The notes under the pieces are model-generated. The model did no database searches. It had not been told where the DNA came from and saw only the letters and a list, made by a program, of their open reading frames with translations. The translations under genes and the position numbers were made by a program. This document shows, in pieces, positions 1 to 61,127 of a stretch of DNA of 64,000 nucleotides. The first letter of the stretch is position 1. Each line of letters begins with the position of its first letter. Location of the stretch: NCBI RefSeq assembly GCF_056712565.1, contig NZ_CM160072.1. One strand, 5' to 3'.

Positions 1-261
1 GGTCTGCTGAGAGACATAACCCAGGTCCATTGCGATATCAAAAATCGGACGCTCGGTGGTGCGCAACTCAACGGCGGCCAGTAACAGACGGCGCTGGCGA
101 ATGTAATCGCCAAGCGTCTGATGCGTCACCGTGCGGAACATCCGTTGCAAGTACCACTTTGAATAGCCAGATTTTTTTGCGACGACATCAATGTTAAGCG
201 GCTGGTCAATATGCTCGTCAATCCATGCGATAAGATCCTGAATAATTTTCTGATGGGACAT
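1..261 (-). CDS. soxS: SoxS, AraC-family superoxide-response activator; N-terminal part only, the 3' end lies before the window start
   Basis: Minus-strand translation from the ATG at 261 reads MSHQKIIQDLIAWIDEHIDQPLNIDVVAKKSGYSKWYLQRMFRTV..., recognised as SoxS; divergent from soxR. Confidence 0.9.
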   Translation of the reverse strand, partial: MSHQKIIQDLIAWIDEHIDQPLNIDVVAKKSGYSKWYLQRMFRTVTHQTLGDYIRQRRLLLAAVELRTTERPIFDIAMDLGYVSQQT

Positions 262-317
262 AAATCTGCCTCTTTTCAGTGTTCAGTTCGTTAATTCATC
301 TGTTGGGGAGTATAATT

Positions 318-335
318 CCTCAAGTTAACTTGAGG
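318..335. promoter_or_regulatory. SoxR operator, perfect 18-bp palindrome CCTCAAGTTAACTTGAGG in the soxS/soxR divergent promoter
   Basis: Perfect inverted repeat read directly from the sequence, between soxS start (261) and soxR start (347); matches the known SoxR site in the soxS promoter spacer. Confidence 0.8.
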
Positions 336-346
336 TAAAGCGATTT

Positions 347-811
347 ATGGAAAAGAAATTACCCCGCATTAAAGCGCTGCTAACCCCCGGCGAAGTGGCG
401 AAACGCAGCGGTGTGGCGGTATCGGCGCTGCATTTCTATGAAAGCAAAGGGTTGATTACCAGTATCCGTAATAGCGGCAATCAGCGGCGATATAAACGTG
501 ATGTGTTGCGATATGTCGCAATTATCAAAATTGCTCAGCGTATTGGCATTCCGCTCGCAACCATTCGTGAAGCGTTTGGCGTGTTGCCAGAAGGGCATAC
601 GTTAAGTGCGAAAGAGTGGAAACAGCTTTCGTCCCAATGGCGAGAAGAGTTGGATCGGCGCATTCATACCTTAGTGGCGCTGCGTGACGAACTGGATGGA
701 TGTATTGGTTGTGGCTGCCTTTCGCGCAGTGATTGCCCGTTGCGTAACCCGGGCGACCGATTAGGAGAAGAAGGTACCGGCGCACGCTTACTGGAAGATG
801 AACAAAACTAA
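347..811 (+). CDS. soxR: SoxR, MerR-family redox-sensing [2Fe-2S] transcriptional activator
   Basis: 154-aa ORF with N-terminal MerR helix-turn-helix and C-terminal [12 protein letters not shown] cysteine cluster. Confidence 0.95.
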
Positions 812-945
812 AGCGCCACAAGGGCGCTTTAGTTTGTTTTCCGGTCTTTGTCTTTCTCTCTATCCCGCTGGTACACAGGAGGGTTTCCCCCGACGTCAAC
901 ACACCTCATTCGAGCACGTGGTGGAGGTTCCGGTTGGTGTTGATG
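800..945 (-). ncRNA. ryjA: Possible RyjA small RNA, placed by synteny only
   Basis: In K-12 a roughly 140-nt sRNA is annotated antisense and overlapping the soxR 3' end; I cannot verify its sequence from memory, so the coordinates are approximate. Confidence 0.3.
810..840. terminator. Stem-loop directly after the soxR stop codon (AAAGCGCC/GGCGCTTT, loop ACAAG), possible bidirectional terminator
   Basis: 8-bp perfect stem at 810-817/823-830 followed by a T-rich tract on the plus strand. Confidence 0.5.
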
Positions 946-1357
946 CTTTAATTGTATGTTACCGGCGTTTCTTCGCCAGTGTAAAAGTACACTTTTTAGC
1001 CGCAATATTTTTGTCATCTCAGACGATTTTTTATCGCAATCCTGAACGGTATACGGCTCGATAACGCTGCAATCTTGCGCATCGACGATAACGTTTGCGC
1101 ATCAATTGCCTGGTTTTTCATCGTCAAGACAATAAAAGAGAAAAAAGCAGCAAACTTCGGTTGAAAAAGCCGCTATGATCGCCGGATAATCGTTTGCTTT
1201 TTTTACCACCCGTTTTGTATGCGCGGAGCTAAACGTTTGCTTTTTTTGCGACGCAGCAAATTGTCGCAAACCTGGAGCAGGAAGATAACGTTTCGCTGGC
1301 AGGGGATTGTCCGCCACGCATCTTGACGAAAATTAAACTCTCAGGGGATGTTTTCTT

Positions 1358-2707
1358 ATGTCTACGCCATCAGCGCGTACCGGCGGTTCACTCGACGCCT
1401 GGTTTAAAATTTCACAACGTGGAAGCACTGTCCGTCAGGAAGTGGTTGCCGGGTTAACAACGTTTCTGGCGATGGTCTACTCGGTTATCGTCGTTCCAGG
1501 CATGCTGGGTAAAGCGGGCTTCCCGCCTGCGGCAGTTTTCGTTGCAACCTGTCTGGTTGCCGGACTCGGTTCTATCGTGATGGGTCTGTGGGCTAATCTG
1601 CCGTTGGCGATTGGTTGCGCCATCTCTCTGACGGCGTTTACCGCATTCAGTCTGGTGCTGGGGCAACATATTAGCGTACCTGTCGCGCTGGGTGCCGTGT
1701 TCCTGATGGGTGTGCTGTTTACGGTAATTTCTGCCACGGGTATCCGTAGCTGGATTTTGCGCAACTTGCCGCACGGTGTGGCGCACGGCACGGGGATTGG
1801 TATCGGTCTGTTCCTGCTGCTGATTGCTGCTAATGGTGTCGGTCTGGTGATTAAAAACCCACTTGATGGTCTGCCCGTCGCGCTGGGGGATTTCACGACC
1901 TTTCCGGTGATGATGTCGTTGGTGGGGCTGGCAGTGATTATCGGCCTGGAAAAACTGAAAGTCCCTGGTGGCATTCTGCTGACCATTATCGGTATCTCAA
2001 TTGTCGGTTTGATCTTCGATCCTAACGTCCATTTCTCCGGCGTTTTCGCCATGCCTTCATTGAGCGATGAAAACGGCAATTCACTGATTGGCAGCCTGGA
2101 CATTATGGGTGCGCTGAATCCTGTAGTCCTGCCAAGTGTTCTGGCACTGGTGATGACGGCAGTATTTGATGCCACCGGAACTATCCGTGCCGTCGCCGGT
2201 CAGGCGAACCTGCTGGATAAAGATGGGCAGATCATCGACGGCGGGAAAGCACTGACCACCGACTCCATGAGCAGCGTTTTTTCTGGCCTCGTGGGTGCAG
2301 CTCCGGCAGCGGTATACATCGAGTCTGCGGCGGGTACGGCGGCGGGCGGTAAAACCGGTTTGACGGCTATCACCGTTGGCGTGCTGTTCCTGCTGATTCT
2401 GTTCCTCTCTCCGCTCTCTTACCTCGTTCCGGGGTACGCAACGGCTCCGGCGCTGATGTACGTTGGCCTGCTGATGCTGAGCAACGTGGCGAAAATCGAC
2501 TTTGCTGATTTTGTTGATGCGATGGCGGGTCTGGTTACGGCGGTATTCATCGTGCTGACCTGTAACATCGTAACAGGCATCATGATTGGCTTCGCGACTC
2601 TGGTGATTGGTCGTCTGGTTTCCGGCGAATGGCGCAAGTTGAACATCGGTACGGTCGTTATTGCCGTGGCGCTGGTGACCTTCTATGCGGGTGGCTGGGC
2701 TATCTAA
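1358..2707 (+). CDS. ghxP: Guanine/hypoxanthine permease, NCS2/AzgA-like family
   Basis: 449-aa polytopic membrane ORF at the K-12 yjcD position downstream of soxR. Confidence 0.85.
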
Positions 2708-2857
2708 TCTTACATAGGATTCTGAAAACGGGTGGCAATGGCTGCCCGTTTTTATTTTCTCCGCACATTGTGTGAGCTTTTGCGATATTCTGAAAAAATG
2801 AGAATTCAGGCATAACGCCTTTCTCAGATCATAAAAAACATCGCAAACAGGGAACGC

Positions 2858-4507
2858 ATGGAAATCTTCTTCACCATACTGATAATGACCCTCGTGGTCT
2901 CGCTGTCCGGGGTGGTCACTCGTGTCATGCCCTTTCAGATCCCGCTTCCGCTTATGCAAATCGCCATCGGTGCGCTACTGGCGTGGCCGACGTTTGGTTT
3001 GCATGTGGAGTTTGATCCTGAACTCTTTTTAGTCTTGTTTATCCCGCCGTTGCTGTTCGCTGATGGCTGGAAAACGCCGACCCGTGAATTTCTCGAACAT
3101 GGGCGAGAGATTTTCGGCCTCGCGCTGGCGCTGGTGGTGGTCACCGTGGTCGGCATTGGCTTCCTTATTTACTGGGTGGTGCCGGGCATTCCGCTGATCC
3201 CCGCCTTTGCGCTGGCTGCGGTGCTTTCTCCGACCGATGCTGTAGCGCTCTCCGGGATTGTTGGCGAGGGGCGCATCCCGAAAAAAATCATGGGCATTTT
3301 GCAGGGCGAAGCGTTGATGAATGACGCCTCCGGCCTGGTGTCGTTGAAGTTTGCCGTGGCAGTGGCGATGGGGACAATGATCTTCACCGTCGGCGGTGCG
3401 ACGGTCGAATTTATGAAAGTGGCAATAGGCGGTATTCTCGCCGGTTTTGTGGTGAGCTGGCTGTATGGTCGCTCGCTGCGATTCCTCAGCCGCTGGGGCG
3501 GTGATGAACCCGCGACGCAGATCGTTCTGCTGTTCTTGCTGCCATTCGCTTCTTATCTGATTGCGGAACATATTGGCGTTTCCGGCATCCTCGCTGCGGT
3601 TGCCGCCGGGATGACCATCACCCGCTCCGGTGTGATGCGCCGTGCGCCGCTGGCAATGCGCCTGCGCGCAAACAGCACCTGGGCGATGCTGGAATTTGTC
3701 TTTAACGGCATGGTGTTCCTGCTGTTAGGTCTGCAGTTGCCGGGGATTCTGGAGACGTCGCTGATGGCGGCAGAAATCGACCCTAACGTCGAAATCTGGA
3801 TGCTGTTTACCGATATTATTCTGATATATGCGGCGCTGATGCTGGTCCGTTTCGGCTGGCTGTGGACGATGAAAAAGTTCAGCAACCGCTTCCTGAAGAA
3901 GAAGCCGATGGAGTTTGGTTCGTGGACTACACGAGAAATCCTGATCGCGTCTTTCGCCGGGGTGCGTGGGGCGATCACTCTGGCCGGTGTGCTCTCTATC
4001 CCGCTTCTCTTGCCGGATGGTAACGTCTTCCCTGCGCGCTATGAGTTGGTGTTCCTGGCGGCTGGCGTCATTCTCTTCTCATTGTTTGTCGGCGTGGTGA
4101 TGTTGCCTATTCTGCTACAACACATAGAAGTCGCGGACCATTCGCAACAATTGAAAGAGGAACGTATTGCACGAGCGGCAACGGCAGAAGTGGCGATTGT
4201 GGCGATCCAGAAAATGGAGGAGCGTCTGGCGGCGGATACCGAAGAGAATATCGATAACCAGCTGCTCACAGAGGTTAGTTCTCGCGTCATTGGTAACCTG
4301 CGTCGTCGCGCCGATGGACGTAATGATGTAGAAAGTTCAATCCTGGAAGAGAACCTGGAGCGTCGCTTCCGTCTGGCGGCATTGCGTTCTGAACGTGCTG
4401 AACTGTACCACCTGCGCGCCACGCGGGAGATCAGTAACGAAACGCTGCAAAAATTACTGCACGATCTCGATTTGCTTGAAGCGTTGCTGATTGAGGAAAA
4501 TCAGTAA
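2858..4507 (+). CDS. yjcE: Putative Na+/H+ exchanger, CPA1 family
   Basis: 549-aa membrane ORF with a charged C-terminal cytoplasmic domain; synteny. Confidence 0.85.
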   Translation: MEIFFTILIMTLVVSLSGVVTRVMPFQIPLPLMQIAIGALLAWPTFGLHVEFDPELFLVLFIPPLLFADGWKTPTREFLEHGREIFGLALALVVVTVVGIGFLIYWVVPGIPLIPAFALAAVLSPTDAVALSGIVGEGRIPKKIMGILQGEALMNDASGLVSLKFAVAVAMGTMIFTVGGATVEFMKVAIGGILAGFVVSWLYGRSLRFLSRWGGDEPATQIVLLFLLPFASYLIAEHIGVSGILAAVAAGMTITRSGVMRRAPLAMRLRANSTWAMLEFVFNGMVFLLLGLQLPGILETSLMAAEIDPNVEIWMLFTDIILIYAALMLVRFGWLWTMKKFSNRFLKKKPMEFGSWTTREILIASFAGVRGAITLAGVLSIPLLLPDGNVFPARYELVFLAAGVILFSLFVGVVMLPILLQHIEVADHSQQLKEERIARAATAEVAIVAIQKMEERLAADTEENIDNQLLTEVSSRVIGNLRRRADGRNDVESSILEENLERRFRLAALRSERAELYHLRATREISNETLQKLLHDLDLLEALLIEENQ

Positions 4508-4516
4508 TCTGCATGG

Positions 4517-4536
4517 TTGGCGGGCGAGCCCGCCAA
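4517..4536. terminator. Hairpin TTGGCGGGC-GAG-GCCCGCCAA between the convergent yjcE and LysR-type genes
   Basis: Perfect 9-bp GC-rich stem with 3-nt loop; no long U-tract on either side. Confidence 0.45.
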
Positions 4537-4542
4537 CCCGAC

Positions 4543-5427
4543 TTACTCTGGCGTTAACCAGTATCCTTCACAACAGCTCAGCCACGCGTGGGCAGAGTGG
4601 GAAAGGTAAACGCCCTCACGCCAAATCATTCCTAATTTCCAGCTTAGTTCGCTTTCCAGCGGTAGCCATTTTAAGGTGTTTTTATCTAATCGCTGGCAAA
4701 TGGGTTCCGGCAATATGGCTATTCCGACACCGGCCTGAACCATCGCGGCGAGAAAATCCCATTGCCCGCTGCGAACTGCAATTCTCGGCTTAACGCCATG
4801 TTCATCGAATAACTTCATCAATTGCTTACTTAAGGCAAAATCTTCGTTATAGATAAGTAGAGGATGTTCCGCCAATGTCTCCGGTGAGACGGCATCACAT
4901 TCAAGCCATTTACCTGAATGTGGCGTCAGTACACATAGTGGATGACTAAACAGCGATAACGTTGTCAGGCCGCTTTCTTCTACTGGCAGGGCTGTCAGTG
5001 CCATATCCAGTTCACCGTTCATCACCGCTTGTTGTACCGTCAGACCACCAAACTCCGAAATTTTCAATTCTACGCCGGGGTAACGCTGGCGAAAAAGGCC
5101 AATCGGCCCGGCCATCAACATCCCAACCATCGGCGGGATTCCCAGCCGCAAAACGCCGGTTTTAAGCTGATTGATATCGCTAAGCTCAGCTTCCAGTTGC
5201 CGAAACTCAGCCAGTAAAGCCAGCCCGCGCTCAAATACGACGCGACCAGTATCAGTGAGAAGCAGCCGACGACCATCGCGGATCAACAATATACAGTTCA
5301 GCTCATCTTCGAGATTCTTCAGCATCTTGCTGATAGTTGGTTGGGTGACAAACAACTTCTCCGCTGCGCGGGTGAAGCTTTGCTGGCGCACGACTTCGAC
5401 AAAATAACGCAGCGTTCTGATATCCAT
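4543..5427 (-). CDS. LysR-family transcriptional regulator
   Basis: 294-aa ORF; N-terminal MDIRTLRYFVEVVRQQSFTRAAEKLFVTQPTISKMLKNLE is a typical LysR helix-turn-helix; divergent from the LrgA-like gene. Confidence 0.85.
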   Translation of the reverse strand: MDIRTLRYFVEVVRQQSFTRAAEKLFVTQPTISKMLKNLEDELNCILLIRDGRRLLLTDTGRVVFERGLALLAEFRQLEAELSDINQLKTGVLRLGIPPMVGMLMAGPIGLFRQRYPGVELKISEFGGLTVQQAVMNGELDMALTALPVEESGLTTLSLFSHPLCVLTPHSGKWLECDAVSPETLAEHPLLIYNEDFALSKQLMKLFDEHGVKPRIAVRSGQWDFLAAMVQAGVGIAILPEPICQRLDKNTLKWLPLESELSWKLGMIWREGVYLSHSAHAWLSCCEGYWLTPE

Positions 5428-8701: not shown

Positions 8702-8907
8702 TTGCCGAATGTAGGCCGGATAAGGCGTTATACGCCGCATCCGGCAATCAATGCCTGATGCGACGCTGTCGCGTCTTATCAGGCCTACAGCCGTTGCCGA
8801 ATGTAGGCCGGATAAGGCGTTCACGCCGCATCCGGCAACCAGCGCCTGATGCGCCGCTGTCGCGTCTTATCAGGCCTACAAACCGTTACCGACTCGCATC
8901 CGGCAAT
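8702..8907. repeat. BIME: tandem duplication of a 92-bp unit of two REP-like palindromes (about 2.2 copies)
   Basis: Unit starting at 8702 repeats at 8794 with a few substitutions, followed by a partial third copy; contains GCCGGATAAGGCGTT..ACGCCGCATCCGGC and GCCTGATGCG..CGTCTTATCAGGCCTAC. Confidence 0.85.
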
Positions 8908-25687: not shown

Positions 25688-27835
25688 TTACGCCAGTGCC
25701 GCTTCGCGCAGGCGAGTTTTCAACTTGTTGTACTCGTCAATCACGTACTGCTCGGCGGCGCGCTGATCGGCGATCGGCTCGACGCGCACGGCGCAGTATT
25801 TGTATTCCGGCGTTTTCGTAATCGGGCTTAAGTTTTCGGTCACCAGCTCGTTACAGGCACCAATCCACCACTGGTAGGTCATGTAAATCGCCCCTTTGTT
25901 CGGACGATCGCTGACCTGCGCACGGGTGATAATTTTGCCTTTACGCGAGTGCACCCAAACCAATGCCTCATCTTCAATACCCAGACGTTTGGCGTCTTCG
26001 GTATTGATTTGTGCGTAGCCAGGTTCATCAGCCAGCGCCGCCAGTGCCGCACAGTTACCGGTCATCGAACGGCAAGAGTAGTGACCAACTTCACGCACCG
26101 TTGACAGTACCATCGGGTACTCGTCGGTGAGTTTGTCGATTGGCGCTACCCAGTCGCAGGTGAAGAACTGCGCCAGACCGTTCGGGGTATCAAACTTCTC
26201 TTTAAACAGATAAGAAGTCCCCTGATCGGCATCTGAAGTATCGCGGCAAGGCCACTGAATGAAGCCCAGTTCGCCCATTTTCTCGTAAGTCGCACCGTAG
26301 AAATCCGGGCACAGATGACGCAACTCGTCCCAGATCTCCTGGGTGTTGTTGTAGTGCATCGGATAACCCATACGAGTGGCAATTTCACTGATGATTTGCC
26401 AGTCCGTTTTCAGATCCCACTTCGGCTCAACCGCCTTGAAGAAACGCTGGAAGCCACGGTCAGCCGCAGTAAACACGCCTTCATGCTCGCCCCACGACGT
26501 TGACGGTAAAATGACATCCGCCGCCGACGCGGTTTTGGTCATAAAGATGTCCTGAACGATAACCAGTTCCAGATCTTCAAAGGCTTTACGTACTGCCGAC
26601 AGTTCCGCGTCAGTTTGCAGCGGATCTTCGCCCATAATGTACGCCGCTCTCACTTCACCATGCGCCACGCGGTGCGGCAGCTCGCTGATACGATAACCGG
26701 TATGAGCAGGCAGGCTTTCCACGCCCCAGGCTTTGGCAAATTTCTCGCGGTTAGCCGGATCTTTCACGTACTGATAGCCCGGATACGTATCCGGCAGCGC
26801 GCCCATATCGCAGGCACCCTGCACGTTGTTCTGACCACGAACCGGGTTTACACCCGCATGTGGCTTACCGAGGTTACCGGTCAGCATCGCGAGGCTGGTC
26901 AGAGAACGCACGGTTTCCACGCCCTGATAGAACTGGGTTACCCCCATGCCCCACAGGATGGCGGCGCTTTCCGCCTGGGCATACATCCGCGCCGCCTGAC
27001 GAATCTCACTGGCGCTGACGCCGGTGATATCTTCAACCGACTCCGGCGTGTAGCCTTCAACGATTTTACGATACTCTTCAAAGCCTTCTGTACGGGAAGC
27101 GACGAACGCTTTGTCGTACAGATTTTCTTCAATAATGACATGGCCCATCGCATTCAACAGCGCGATGTTCGAGCCGTTTTTCAATGCAATGTGCATGTCA
27201 GCAATGCGCGCGGTTTCAATTTTACGCGGATCGCAGACGATAATTTTCGCCCCGTTACGTTTAGCGTTAATTACGTGATTCGCCACGATTGGGTGGGAAT
27301 CCGCCGGGTTATACCCGAAAACGAACACTAAATCGGTATTATCAATTTCGTTAATAGCATTGCTCATTGCGCCATTACCGACCGATTGGTGCAGACCTGC
27401 AACCGATGGGCCGTGTCAGACACGAGCGCAGCAGTCAACGTTATTGGTACCAATAACGGCGCGCGCAAATTTTTGCATTACATAGTTGGTTTCGTTACCC
27501 GTACCGCGCGAGGAGCCGGTCGTCTGGATGGCATCCGGACCGTACTTCTCTTTGATGGCGCTCAGGCGCTCGGCAACGTAATTCAGTGCCTCATCCCAGG
27601 AAACAGGTTCGAGTTTGCCGCCACGCTGGCGACGGATCATGGGGGTTTTCAGGCGCGGGGTCAGGATCTGGGTATCGTTAATGAAGTCCCAGCCATAATA
27701 ACCCTTCAGACACAGGGTACCCTGGTTGGTTTTCCCCTGCGCTGCCTCCGCCCGGACGATTTTGCCGTTATCGACGACCAGGTTGATTTTGCAACCTGAT
27801 GCGCAATAGGGGCAAACCGTGACGACTTTTTTCAT
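25688..27835 (-). CDS. fdhF: Formate dehydrogenase H, selenocysteine-containing molybdoenzyme; in-frame TGA (Sec) at 27417-27419
   Basis: The 139-aa and 559-aa ORFs are contiguous in one frame across a single TGA (..DCCARV-U-HGPSVAGLHQ..); N-terminal CPYCASGC Fe-S motif; total 715 aa. Confidence 0.9.
27370..27416 (-). other. fdhF SECIS stem-loop directing selenocysteine insertion at the TGA
   Basis: mRNA immediately 3' of the UGA (CACGGCCCAUCGGUUGCAGGUCUGCACCAAUCGGUCGG) is the hairpin-forming segment known as the fdhF SECIS. Confidence 0.6.
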
Positions 27836-50792: not shown

Positions 50793-51635
50793 TCAGATAA
50801 AGTGCTTACGCAACCGTTGAGAGAGGAAATCCAGCAGGCTGACCGTGACGATGATGAGCACCATCAGGGCGCAGGTTTGCTGGAACTGGAAACCGCGAAT
50901 CGCTTCCCACAGCGTGACGCCGATCCCGCTCGCGCCAACCATACCGACGACGGTCGCCGAGCGGACGTTGGATTCGAAGCGATAGAGAGAGTAGGAAATC
51001 AGCAGCGGCATGACCTGCGGTAGTACGCCGTAGAGGATCTCTTCCAGCTTGTTGGCACCGGTAGCGCGAATGCCCTCCACCGGGCCGGGTTCAATCGCTT
51101 CTACCGCTTCGGAAAGCAGTTTGGAAAGTACGCCGGTGGTGTGGATAAACAGCGCCAGCACGCCAGCGAACGGGCCGAGGCCGACGGCGACCACGAACAG
51201 CATGGCGAAGACTATTTCGTTAATGGCGCGGCAGGCGTCCATCAGGCGGCGTACAGGTTGGTAGACCCACCACGGTACCAGGTTTTCAGCGCTCATCAGG
51301 CCGAAGGGGATGGAGAGAACCACCGCCAGCGCGGTGCCCCAGACGGCGATTTGCAGCGTGACGGCCATTTCGGTGAGGTAATCCTGCCACTGGCTGAAAT
51401 CGGGCGGGAAGAAGTCGGCGGCGAACGTCGCCATGTTGCCGCCATCTTTAATCAGCGTAAGCGGTGCCATTTCCGCGCCCTGCCACGAGACGACCAGCAC
51501 GGCGATAACAACGGCCCAGCTCAGAAGCGAGAACCAGCTGCGCTTGGGTGGGGCGATGGTGATGGTTTGCATGTTTGGCTCCGGTCTGTAGGCCGGATAA
51601 GGTGCTTGCACCGCATCCGGCATCAACGTCTGCAC
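50793..51635 (-). CDS. phnE: Phosphonate ABC transporter permease; open reading frame uninterrupted
   Basis: Continuous 280-aa ORF (internal alternative start [10 protein letters not shown] possible) with polytopic topology. Confidence 0.85.
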
Positions 51636-51680
51636 ATTGTCGGATGCGACGCCGGGGCGTCTTATCCGACCTACGATTTA
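51585..51680. repeat. REP element pair between phnE and phnD
   Basis: GTAGGCCGGATAAGG..CATCCGGC and CGGATGCGACG..CGTCTTATCCGACCTAC palindromes. Confidence 0.8.
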
Positions 51681-54147: not shown

Positions 54148-54230
<83 letters not shown>

Positions 54231-59850: not shown

Positions 59851-59900
59851 GCTGAAACGGATGGCCTGATGTGACGCTGTCTAATCAGGTCAATTGAACT

Positions 59901-59917
59901 CTTAAGGTTCACTTAAT
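59901..59917 (+). promoter_or_regulatory. PmrA (BasR) box CTTAAG-GTTCA-CTTAAT upstream of pmrR
   Basis: Direct hexamer repeat with 5-bp spacer matching the YTTAAK-N5-YTTAAK PmrA consensus, 45 bp upstream of the pmrR ATG. Confidence 0.6.
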
Positions 59918-59961
59918 CTCTGACGCGCATACTCTCCTCCAGGTTAACGGAGGAGAGTGCA

Positions 59962-60051
59962 ATGAAAAACCGTGTTTATGAAAGTTTAACTACCGTGTTC
60001 AGCGTGCTGGTGGTCAGCAGCTTTCTTTATATCTGGTTTGCCACGTACTGA
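59962..60051 (+). CDS. pmrR: PmrR, 29-aa membrane peptide (PmrA-activated regulator of LpxT)
   Basis: ORF MKNRVYESLTTVFSVLVVSSFLYIWFATY with one transmembrane helix, preceded by GGAGGAGAG; its 3' end overlaps the basS 3' end on the opposite strand. Confidence 0.6.
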   Translation: MKNRVYESLTTVFSVLVVSSFLYIWFATY

Positions 60052-61127
60052 TCTTTTTTCAGCCGTATCCAGGCCCGCGTGCCGGAAGTCTCTTGCCGGT
60101 TTTGCAGGAAAAACTGCCCGTGATGCAACTGTGTAATGCGGCTGACAATACTTAACCCCAGACCAATCCCGCCATAACGGCTGTCCATTCGTACAAACGC
60201 TTTACTCAACTCCCCGCATTTACTCTCATCAATACCCGGCCCTTCATCTTCAACGGCCATGACCGCTCCGCCATCTTCTTGCAGCTTAATCATAATGTTG
60301 CTGCCTTGTGGGCTATAACGATGGGCGTTTTCTACCAGGTTTCGCAATAACATCCGCAGCAGGGTTGCATCACCCTGAACGGTGATGTCGGCGGCGCTCT
60401 CTGGCAATAGCAGGGTTTGCTGGCGCTGGTCGAGCATGGTACTAAGTTCGTCATACGAGGGGAGAATGACATCTTCCAGCAGTTTTACATGTTGATAATT
60501 ACCGGAAGAAAATGACTGTCCGGCACGCGCCAGTTGCAGCAGCTGGGAGACGCTCTCCATCATCTGATCAAGTCGTGCCACTAACGGTGCTACATCAATG
60601 TGATGCGTTTTCGCCAGCAGTTCCAGATGCAAACGCACCCCCGCCAGTGGTGTTCGCAGTTCGTGCGCGACGTCAGCGGTAAACAACCTTTCGTTATCCA
60701 GCGTGCTGGTCAGGCGACTGACCAGATCGTTTAACGCCGAAACCACCGCATCGATTTCGAGGGTGGCGCTATGAATGGCAATGGGCGTTAAGTTATCGGC
60801 GGTGCGCGCTTCCAGCTCTTTTTGCAGCTCCGCCAGCGGTCGGGTGATGCGGCGTACCGCCTGATAGCAGATAAATAGCGTCAGGCTAACCATAAAGACG
60901 CCGGGGACAATCAGGCTGGCGACCGCCTCGCGGATCTCACGCATGATGTGGCGATCGTTGTTGCGATTGTCGCGTAGCGCCTGCTCAAACAGCTGAATCT
61001 GCTCGGTACTTTCATGCCACAGCCAGAAGACGCTGATCAGCTCAAACACCAACAAAATGGCCCCGATGGTCAATATCAGCCGTTGGCGCAGCGATATTGG
61101 TCGGCGCAGAAAACGCATCAGATTCAA
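60027..61127 (-). CDS. basS: Sensor histidine kinase BasS/PmrB
   Basis: HAMP and HisKA (HELRTPL) motifs; start could be 61127 or the ATG at 61118. Confidence 0.9.
   Translation of the reverse strand: MNLMRFLRRPISLRQRLILTIGAILLVFELISVFWLWHESTEQIQLFEQALRDNRNNDRHIMREIREAVASLIVPGVFMVSLTLFICYQAVRRITRPLAELQKELEARTADNLTPIAIHSATLEIDAVVSALNDLVSRLTSTLDNERLFTADVAHELRTPLAGVRLHLELLAKTHHIDVAPLVARLDQMMESVSQLLQLARAGQSFSSGNYQHVKLLEDVILPSYDELSTMLDQRQQTLLLPESAADITVQGDATLLRMLLRNLVENAHRYSPQGSNIMIKLQEDGGAVMAVEDEGPGIDESKCGELSKAFVRMDSRYGGIGLGLSIVSRITQLHHGQFFLQNRQETSGTRAWIRLKKDQYVANQI

Follow-up and report, generated by a model that had tools for sequence, protein, structure and literature searches.

The window analyzed here is a 64,000-nucleotide (nt) stretch of contig NZ_CM160072.1 (NCBI RefSeq assembly GCF_056712565.1), and all coordinates refer to it. 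It opens with the 3' part of soxS on the minus strand (1-261), followed on the plus strand by soxR, an open reading frame (ORF) of 154 aa at 347-811, and, after a gap of 546 nt, by ghxP (1358-2707). At the soxR end of this gap lies the 141-nt gene of a small RNA (sRNA), sraL (also named ryjA), which occupies positions 804-944 of the minus strand (5' end at 944, 3' end at 804). The order soxS-soxR-sraL-ghxP matches that of K-12. Positions 600-1400 are 100% identical in ATCC 11775, NU14, and other strains. PGAP/RefSeq records of such window-identical strains (e.g., ATCC 11775; NZ_CP033092.2) contain only soxR and ghxP at this place and omit ryjA. This is a gap in annotation and no biological difference. 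The assignment is thus of value for annotation, ryjA being annotated only in the K-12 record.

The first-pass annotation had predicted, from synteny with K-12, that an sRNA (RyjA) lies on the minus strand at 800-945. When positions 1-5000 were scanned against all Rfam families, the minus strand of 804-944 matched RF01408 (sraL) with 153.3 bits (gathering score, 39; E value, 8.9e-36), so that an sRNA is indeed present there. The match was full-length and not truncated (model positions 1-142 of 142), was reproduced on a repeat scan, and was the single strong Rfam match in positions 1-5000. A weak match of the same model on the plus strand (23.7 bits) covered only the terminator part, which is near-palindromic. 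In the K-12 MG1655 annotation, the noncoding RNA ryjA (b4459) is a minus-strand gene of 141 nt at 4277926-4278066, with an 8-nt soxR overlap. The alignment with this gene that had been proposed as a check was run using the minus strand of 760-1010, and 804-944 was identical to the annotated K-12 ryjA at 141 of 141 positions. The predicted location was therefore right and its ends were off by 4 nt and 1 nt, while the expected identity as RyjA is borne out by sequence identity, the covariance-model match, and the gene order soxS-soxR-ryjA-ghxP. Outside the sRNA, the aligned segment differs from K-12 by four single-nucleotide polymorphisms (SNPs) upstream of +1, one in soxR (790), and one at the end of the segment (760). 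SraL/RyjA is a textbook sRNA, described in 2001. The feature at 804-944 is its gene, ordinary and already described.

Rfam models also matched elsewhere in the window. The enterobacterial sRNA STnc630 was found at full length on the plus strand (59893-60058; 182 bits). A SECIS_2 selenocysteine insertion element on the minus strand (27369-27423; 87.1 bits) implies a selenoprotein gene at that place, presumably fdhF, given the chromosomal neighborhood. Four matches to naRNA4/CssrE, which are REP-type repeat elements, lie at 8714-8785, 8806-8876, and 51591-51671 on the plus strand and at 54148-54225 on the minus strand. Between sraL and ghxP, the region 1084-1297 contains several AACGTTTGC-type motifs, at 1090, 1189, and 1232 and, as GATAACGTTTCGC, at 1285. 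These motifs stand in direct and inverted repeat relations to each other, and we take them to resemble PurR-box half-sites; ghxP encodes a purine transporter. The window-wide count of the 9-mer (31 versus 23.1 ± 4.7) is not clearly above chance, but three copies cluster in a span of 150 bp.

The 3' end of sraL adjoins that of soxR in a shared terminator. On the minus strand, an intrinsic terminator was called at 805-835, with a 13-bp stem (6 G-C pairs), a loop of 5 nt, and a U-rich tail behind it. On the plus strand, at the 3' end of soxR, the same stem is followed by TTTGTTTT (-29.7 kcal/mol; z = -6.9). Since the hairpin folds on both strands, it is a bidirectional terminator common to the convergent genes soxR and sraL, in agreement with the earlier expectation that RyjA shares the terminator hairpin of soxR. 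According to the ORF list, the K-12 annotation, and a measurement of the overlap, the 3' end of sraL also overlaps the last codons and the stop codon of soxR by 8 nt (804-811).

At the other end of the gene, we found elements of a putative promoter on the minus strand. The candidate -10 hexamer TACAAT (951-956) covers -12 to -7, counted from the 5' end at 944. Directly downstream of it lies the A/T-rich discriminator TAA (948-950), a sigma-S promoter feature that is conserved as TTAA/TAAA across genera. A candidate degenerate -35 element, CTGGCG (974-979), is located 17 nt upstream of the -10 hexamer. When 59 homologous upstream regions (among the matches listed) were aligned, TAnAnT followed by T/A-A-A was nearly invariant from -12 to -4, and a CTGGCR/CTTGMA motif was conserved at 979-974. 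The -10 region reads CTACACTTAA in many genera, which we take to resemble a typical sigma-S -10 element. For the sraL promoter, an RpoS-type -10 element with an "extended -10 motif TAA" has been described (PMC3753932). TACAAT and TAA, which are properly spaced from the 5' end, would thus form a sigma-S (RpoS)-type promoter of sraL. A scan for consensus sigma-70 promoters had offered TTTACA (980-985) and TAACAT (956-961) with an 18-nt spacer. This candidate was rejected because it is not conserved, its -35 element falling in a nonconserved stretch, and is badly spaced from +1 (11 nt).

The four upstream SNPs relative to K-12 are at 960, 965, 990, and 999 (-16, -21, -46, and -55), all within 66 nt of +1, and none of them falls in the -10 or -35 hexamer. 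Judged from the sequence, the SraL gene and its putative core promoter elements are intact in this strain. Upstream of the -35 element of sraL, at approximately 990-1010 on the minus strand (about -45 to -65), most genera have a conserved A/T-rich block with a consensus of roughly GAAAAATTTCGGCTAAAAA. A role as an UP element or as a binding site for a regulator is possible.

Homologues of sraL were collected from a species-representative genome collection (298 Gb), which was scanned with a conserved 16-mer of the sRNA. This yielded at least 120 loci, which were filtered by blastn with the whole sRNA and by soxR synteny. By whole-sRNA blastn, sraL-like sequence was present in at least 64 of 122 loci, two of which are the E. 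coli reference loci. The remaining loci, about 58, lie in unrelated phyla and are chance matches, which are to be expected when 298 Gb are searched. Among the matches listed, soxR directly adjoins all but one of the sraL-like loci, and the genera represented are Escherichia, Citrobacter, Enterobacter, Klebsiella, Raoultella, Kosakonia, Cedecea, Buttiauxella, Mangrovibacter, Shimwellia, Atlantibacter, Leclercia, Lelliottia, Pluralibacter, Phytobacter, Trabulsiella, and others. Homologues thus exist in at least about 60 species of Enterobacteriaceae. Salmonella is absent among the matches listed, either owing to the extent of this list or because the 16-mer is different in this genus. Escherichia- or Enterobacter-type soxR-sraL-ghxP loci were also seen in records labeled "Bacillota bacterium MAG," "Chryseobacterium sp. 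18061," and "Proteobacteria bacterium MAG"; binning contamination or mislabeling in public assemblies is the likely cause of these odd labels.

Within E. coli, the 141-nt sraL query had matches in 5,420 of 5,426 complete genomes. Identity was at least 99% in 5,400 of the matching genomes, which corresponds to about 99.5% of the 5,426. Coverage was below 80% in 12 of the 5,420 (e.g., H27, NZ_CM132948.1), and in strain 405 the match covers nt 1-112, with a second place in the record. Six of the 5,426 genomes are without sraL, and three matches are on plasmids. Insertions or rearrangements at the locus are a possible cause of the partial or missing copies in these few strains.

To follow RNA structure across the family, 60 distinct homologues (among the matches listed) were aligned with MAFFT, and the Rfam consensus structure was projected onto the alignment. 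In this alignment, 94.1% of the cells were paired, versus 39-53% when the partners were slid. Changes on both sides were found in 12 of 38 pairs, across 64 cells, and the covariation score was reached by 0 of 500 shuffles. The covarying pairs include four in the 5' long-range helix 1 (nt 2-8 with nt 43-49), three in helix 6, and two compensatory pairs in the terminator, the helix of which is 95% paired across the 60 species. Helix 3 (nt 31-34 with nt 37-40) is weak, with 78.8% paired. By minimum free energy, the entire sRNA folds only modestly more stably than shuffled sequences do (z = -1.94). Such modest values are typical of sRNAs with long single-stranded seed regions.

The single-stranded parts of SraL are conserved to different degrees. 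Single-stranded nt 9-22 (window positions 923-936) are near-invariant, with a mean identity of 0.85 over 60 species (among the matches listed). The same holds for nt 83-109 (836-862, minus strand; UAGAGAGAAAGACAAAGACCGGAAAAC), an A/G-rich and mostly single-stranded stretch, in which all but 3 nt are unpaired in the Rfam consensus. It has a mean identity of 0.87 and many invariant columns over 60 species, and it may be contacted by Hfq or serve as a second seed. Conservation of nt 51-66 was left out of the evidence because the homologues were fished with this 16-mer, which makes it 100% conserved by construction.

We searched for pairing with the leaders of tig and rho by computing windowed local duplexes corrected for accessibility, with dinucleotide-shuffled targets as a control. 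The top-ranked duplex was formed by SraL nt 25-34 (911-920, minus strand; CACGUGCUCG), the predicted tig mRNA pairing site, and positions -29 to -19 of E. coli tig (CGAGCAC-U-GUG), with -10.9 kcal/mol. It consists of 7 bp, a 1-nt bulge, and 3 bp and lies just upstream of the GAGG Shine-Dalgarno sequence. Only 2 of 100 shuffled tig leaders scored as well. A tig leader with 99% or higher identity occurs in 5,424 E. coli genomes. In Salmonella, the SraL-tig duplex is described as "7 and 3 bp," in which the 5' part of SraL binds immediately before the ribosome binding site (PMC3753932). The computed E. coli pairing has the same geometry and location as this validated interaction. For rho, the best duplex joined nt 89-106 of SraL to positions -152 to -135 of the leader (-10.1 kcal/mol), and 25 of 100 shuffled targets were as good. 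The pairing predicted locally for the E. coli rho leader is therefore no better than chance. Whole-length RNAduplex predictions of SraL with the tig and rho leaders were rejected; they gave artefactual end-to-end duplexes, and 77 of 300 and 258 of 300 shuffled sRNAs, respectively, were as good.

What is known of the function of SraL comes largely from Salmonella, and all target validation is from this genus and none from E. coli. Salmonella SraL accumulates in stationary phase, its level drops about 500-fold when rpoS is mutated, and RpoS is enriched more than 100-fold at the sraL promoter in chromatin immunoprecipitation (PMC3753932, Silva et al. 2013). The sRNA is less stable without Hfq, and it represses tig: compensatory chromosomal mutations (SraL*/tig*) restored regulation, and the duplex was confirmed by gel shifts (PMC3753932). 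According to Silva et al. 2019, as cited in PMC6582626 and PMC12360218, Salmonella SraL also pairs with the rho leader, at a site overlapping a putative rut site, and blocks premature termination by Rho. The full-length RyjA transcript of E. coli undergoes polyadenylation, and its level is increased in a pcnB mutant (log2 change of 3.84; PMC5389530). No paper linking RyjA to RIL-seq turned up in a literature search.

Taken together, these data suggest the following picture. SraL is a trans-acting sRNA of Enterobacteriaceae of roughly 140 nt that is stabilized by Hfq. It would be transcribed from its own sigma-S promoter (948-956) on entry into stationary phase, and transcription would end at the 13-bp terminator, which serves the convergent soxR gene as well. 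The RNA would act on other mRNAs through short and imperfect duplexes. Pairing of nt 25-34 just upstream of the tig Shine-Dalgarno sequence would lower the synthesis of trigger factor, and pairing with the rho leader may, as in Salmonella, keep Rho from terminating transcription prematurely. Turnover of SraL would begin with polyadenylation by PAP I. We consider it about 95% probable that the minus strand of 804-944 is an SraL gene acting in this manner, with a sigma-S promoter, stabilization by Hfq, action in trans, and a terminator in common with soxR. Identity, boundaries, structure, synteny, conservation, promoter elements, and computational tig pairing come from the present analysis. RpoS dependence, Hfq stabilization, tig repression, and rho antitermination, all described in Salmonella, and polyadenylation, described in E. 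coli, probably hold in this strain as well.

Compared with known sRNAs, the locus agrees with SraL/RyjA (RF01408, b4459) in sequence, model match, position and orientation between soxR and ghxP, terminator, and -10/TAA core, and it differs from K-12 ryjA by the four SNPs upstream of +1, outside the hexamers. SdsR (RyeB) is, like SraL, a broadly conserved, stationary-phase, sigma-S-transcribed, Hfq-associated, and trans-acting base-pairing sRNA of enterobacteria; it was named as the only earlier example of a broadly conserved RpoS-dependent enterobacterial sRNA (PMC3753932). Unlike SraL, it has a presumably unrelated sequence, another locus, and other targets (ompD; PMC3753932). DsrA, ArcZ, and RprA block Rho-dependent termination in the rpoS leader, and the same kind of action is reported for SraL on the Salmonella rho leader (PMC6582626, PMC12360218). 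For the present sequence this mechanism is hypothetical, as the computed E. coli rho duplex is indistinguishable from chance (25 of 100 shuffled targets as good).

Among other readings of the locus, the one that survives best concerns the target. The stretch that pairs with tig is the least conserved part of SraL, with a mean identity of 0.56 and the motif GUGCUCG in 15 of 60 homologues (among the matches listed). Because this stretch is poorly conserved across genera, repression of tig may be confined to the group of Escherichia, Citrobacter, and Salmonella. Since other single-stranded blocks are near-invariant, the family as a whole may have a conserved function that involves other targets than tig. 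In addition, the tail-to-tail junction of sraL and soxR via the common terminator is kept in most genera (among the matches listed). On these grounds, it is conceivable, though we hold it to be improbable, that repression of tig is not the conserved core function of SraL, which could instead consist in the regulation of an undescribed conserved target or in a coupling of RpoS and SoxRS at the 3' ends.

Less probable still, and in our view very unlikely, is that SraL is a cis-acting antisense RNA with soxR as its real target. About 40 complementary nt at the 3' end, comprising the terminator and the soxR stop region, would then form a duplex leading to RNase III cleavage, or convergent transcription would interfere with soxR. 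If this were true, SoxR levels would be tied to RpoS activity. The physical overlap described above (8 nt of coding sequence and the common terminator) favors this reading, as does the arrangement in other species: among the matches listed, sraL is convergent with soxR in 59 of 59 loci with a placeable soxR, and the 3' end of the sRNA overlaps the soxR stop codon or lies within 20 nt of it in 41 of the 59. However, the overlapping segment forms an intramolecular 13-bp hairpin in both RNAs and is hence poorly available for intermolecular pairing, and the conserved adjacency is equally expected from simple vertical inheritance. Moreover, the soxR coding sequence is overlapped in only 15 of the 59 loci; the two genes are separated by 0-20 nt in 26, by 21-60 nt in 8, and by more than 60 nt in 10, where the gaps span 84-185 nt (among the matches listed). 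Thus, overlap with soxR is not a conserved requirement. No effect of RyjA on soxR is reported in the papers mentioning both that we examined, and a proteomic screen for SraL in Salmonella gave Tig, NuoG, and RfbH but not SoxR (PMC3753932). The first-pass annotation had named a possible antisense sRNA overlapping the 3' end of soxR. This stands as regards the overlap with soxR but not as regards function, the documented mode of action being pairing in trans with the tig and rho mRNAs (PMC3753932, PMC6582626). "Antisense to soxR" is a description of position only.

Finally, a small mRNA or dual-function RNA, for which the AUG at sRNA nt 36 (window position 909) opens a 26-codon frame in the window sequence (MRCVDVGGNPPVYQRDREKDKDRKTN), was rejected as extremely improbable: the sequence upstream of the AUG (CCUCCACCACGUGCUCGA) contains no Shine-Dalgarno-like sequence, only 14 of 60 homologues have ATG at this column (CTG, ACG, GCG, CCG, and others elsewhere; among the matches listed), indels make the length of the frame variable (15 to 36 or more codons), and what is conserved are helices and single-stranded blocks of the RNA rather than codon positions.

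We therefore keep to the reading of 804-944 as the SraL gene, whose product would act in trans. Within the family, the tig site is confined to a single group of genera, whereas other single-stranded blocks are near-invariant, which hints that SraL may originally have targeted an mRNA other than tig.
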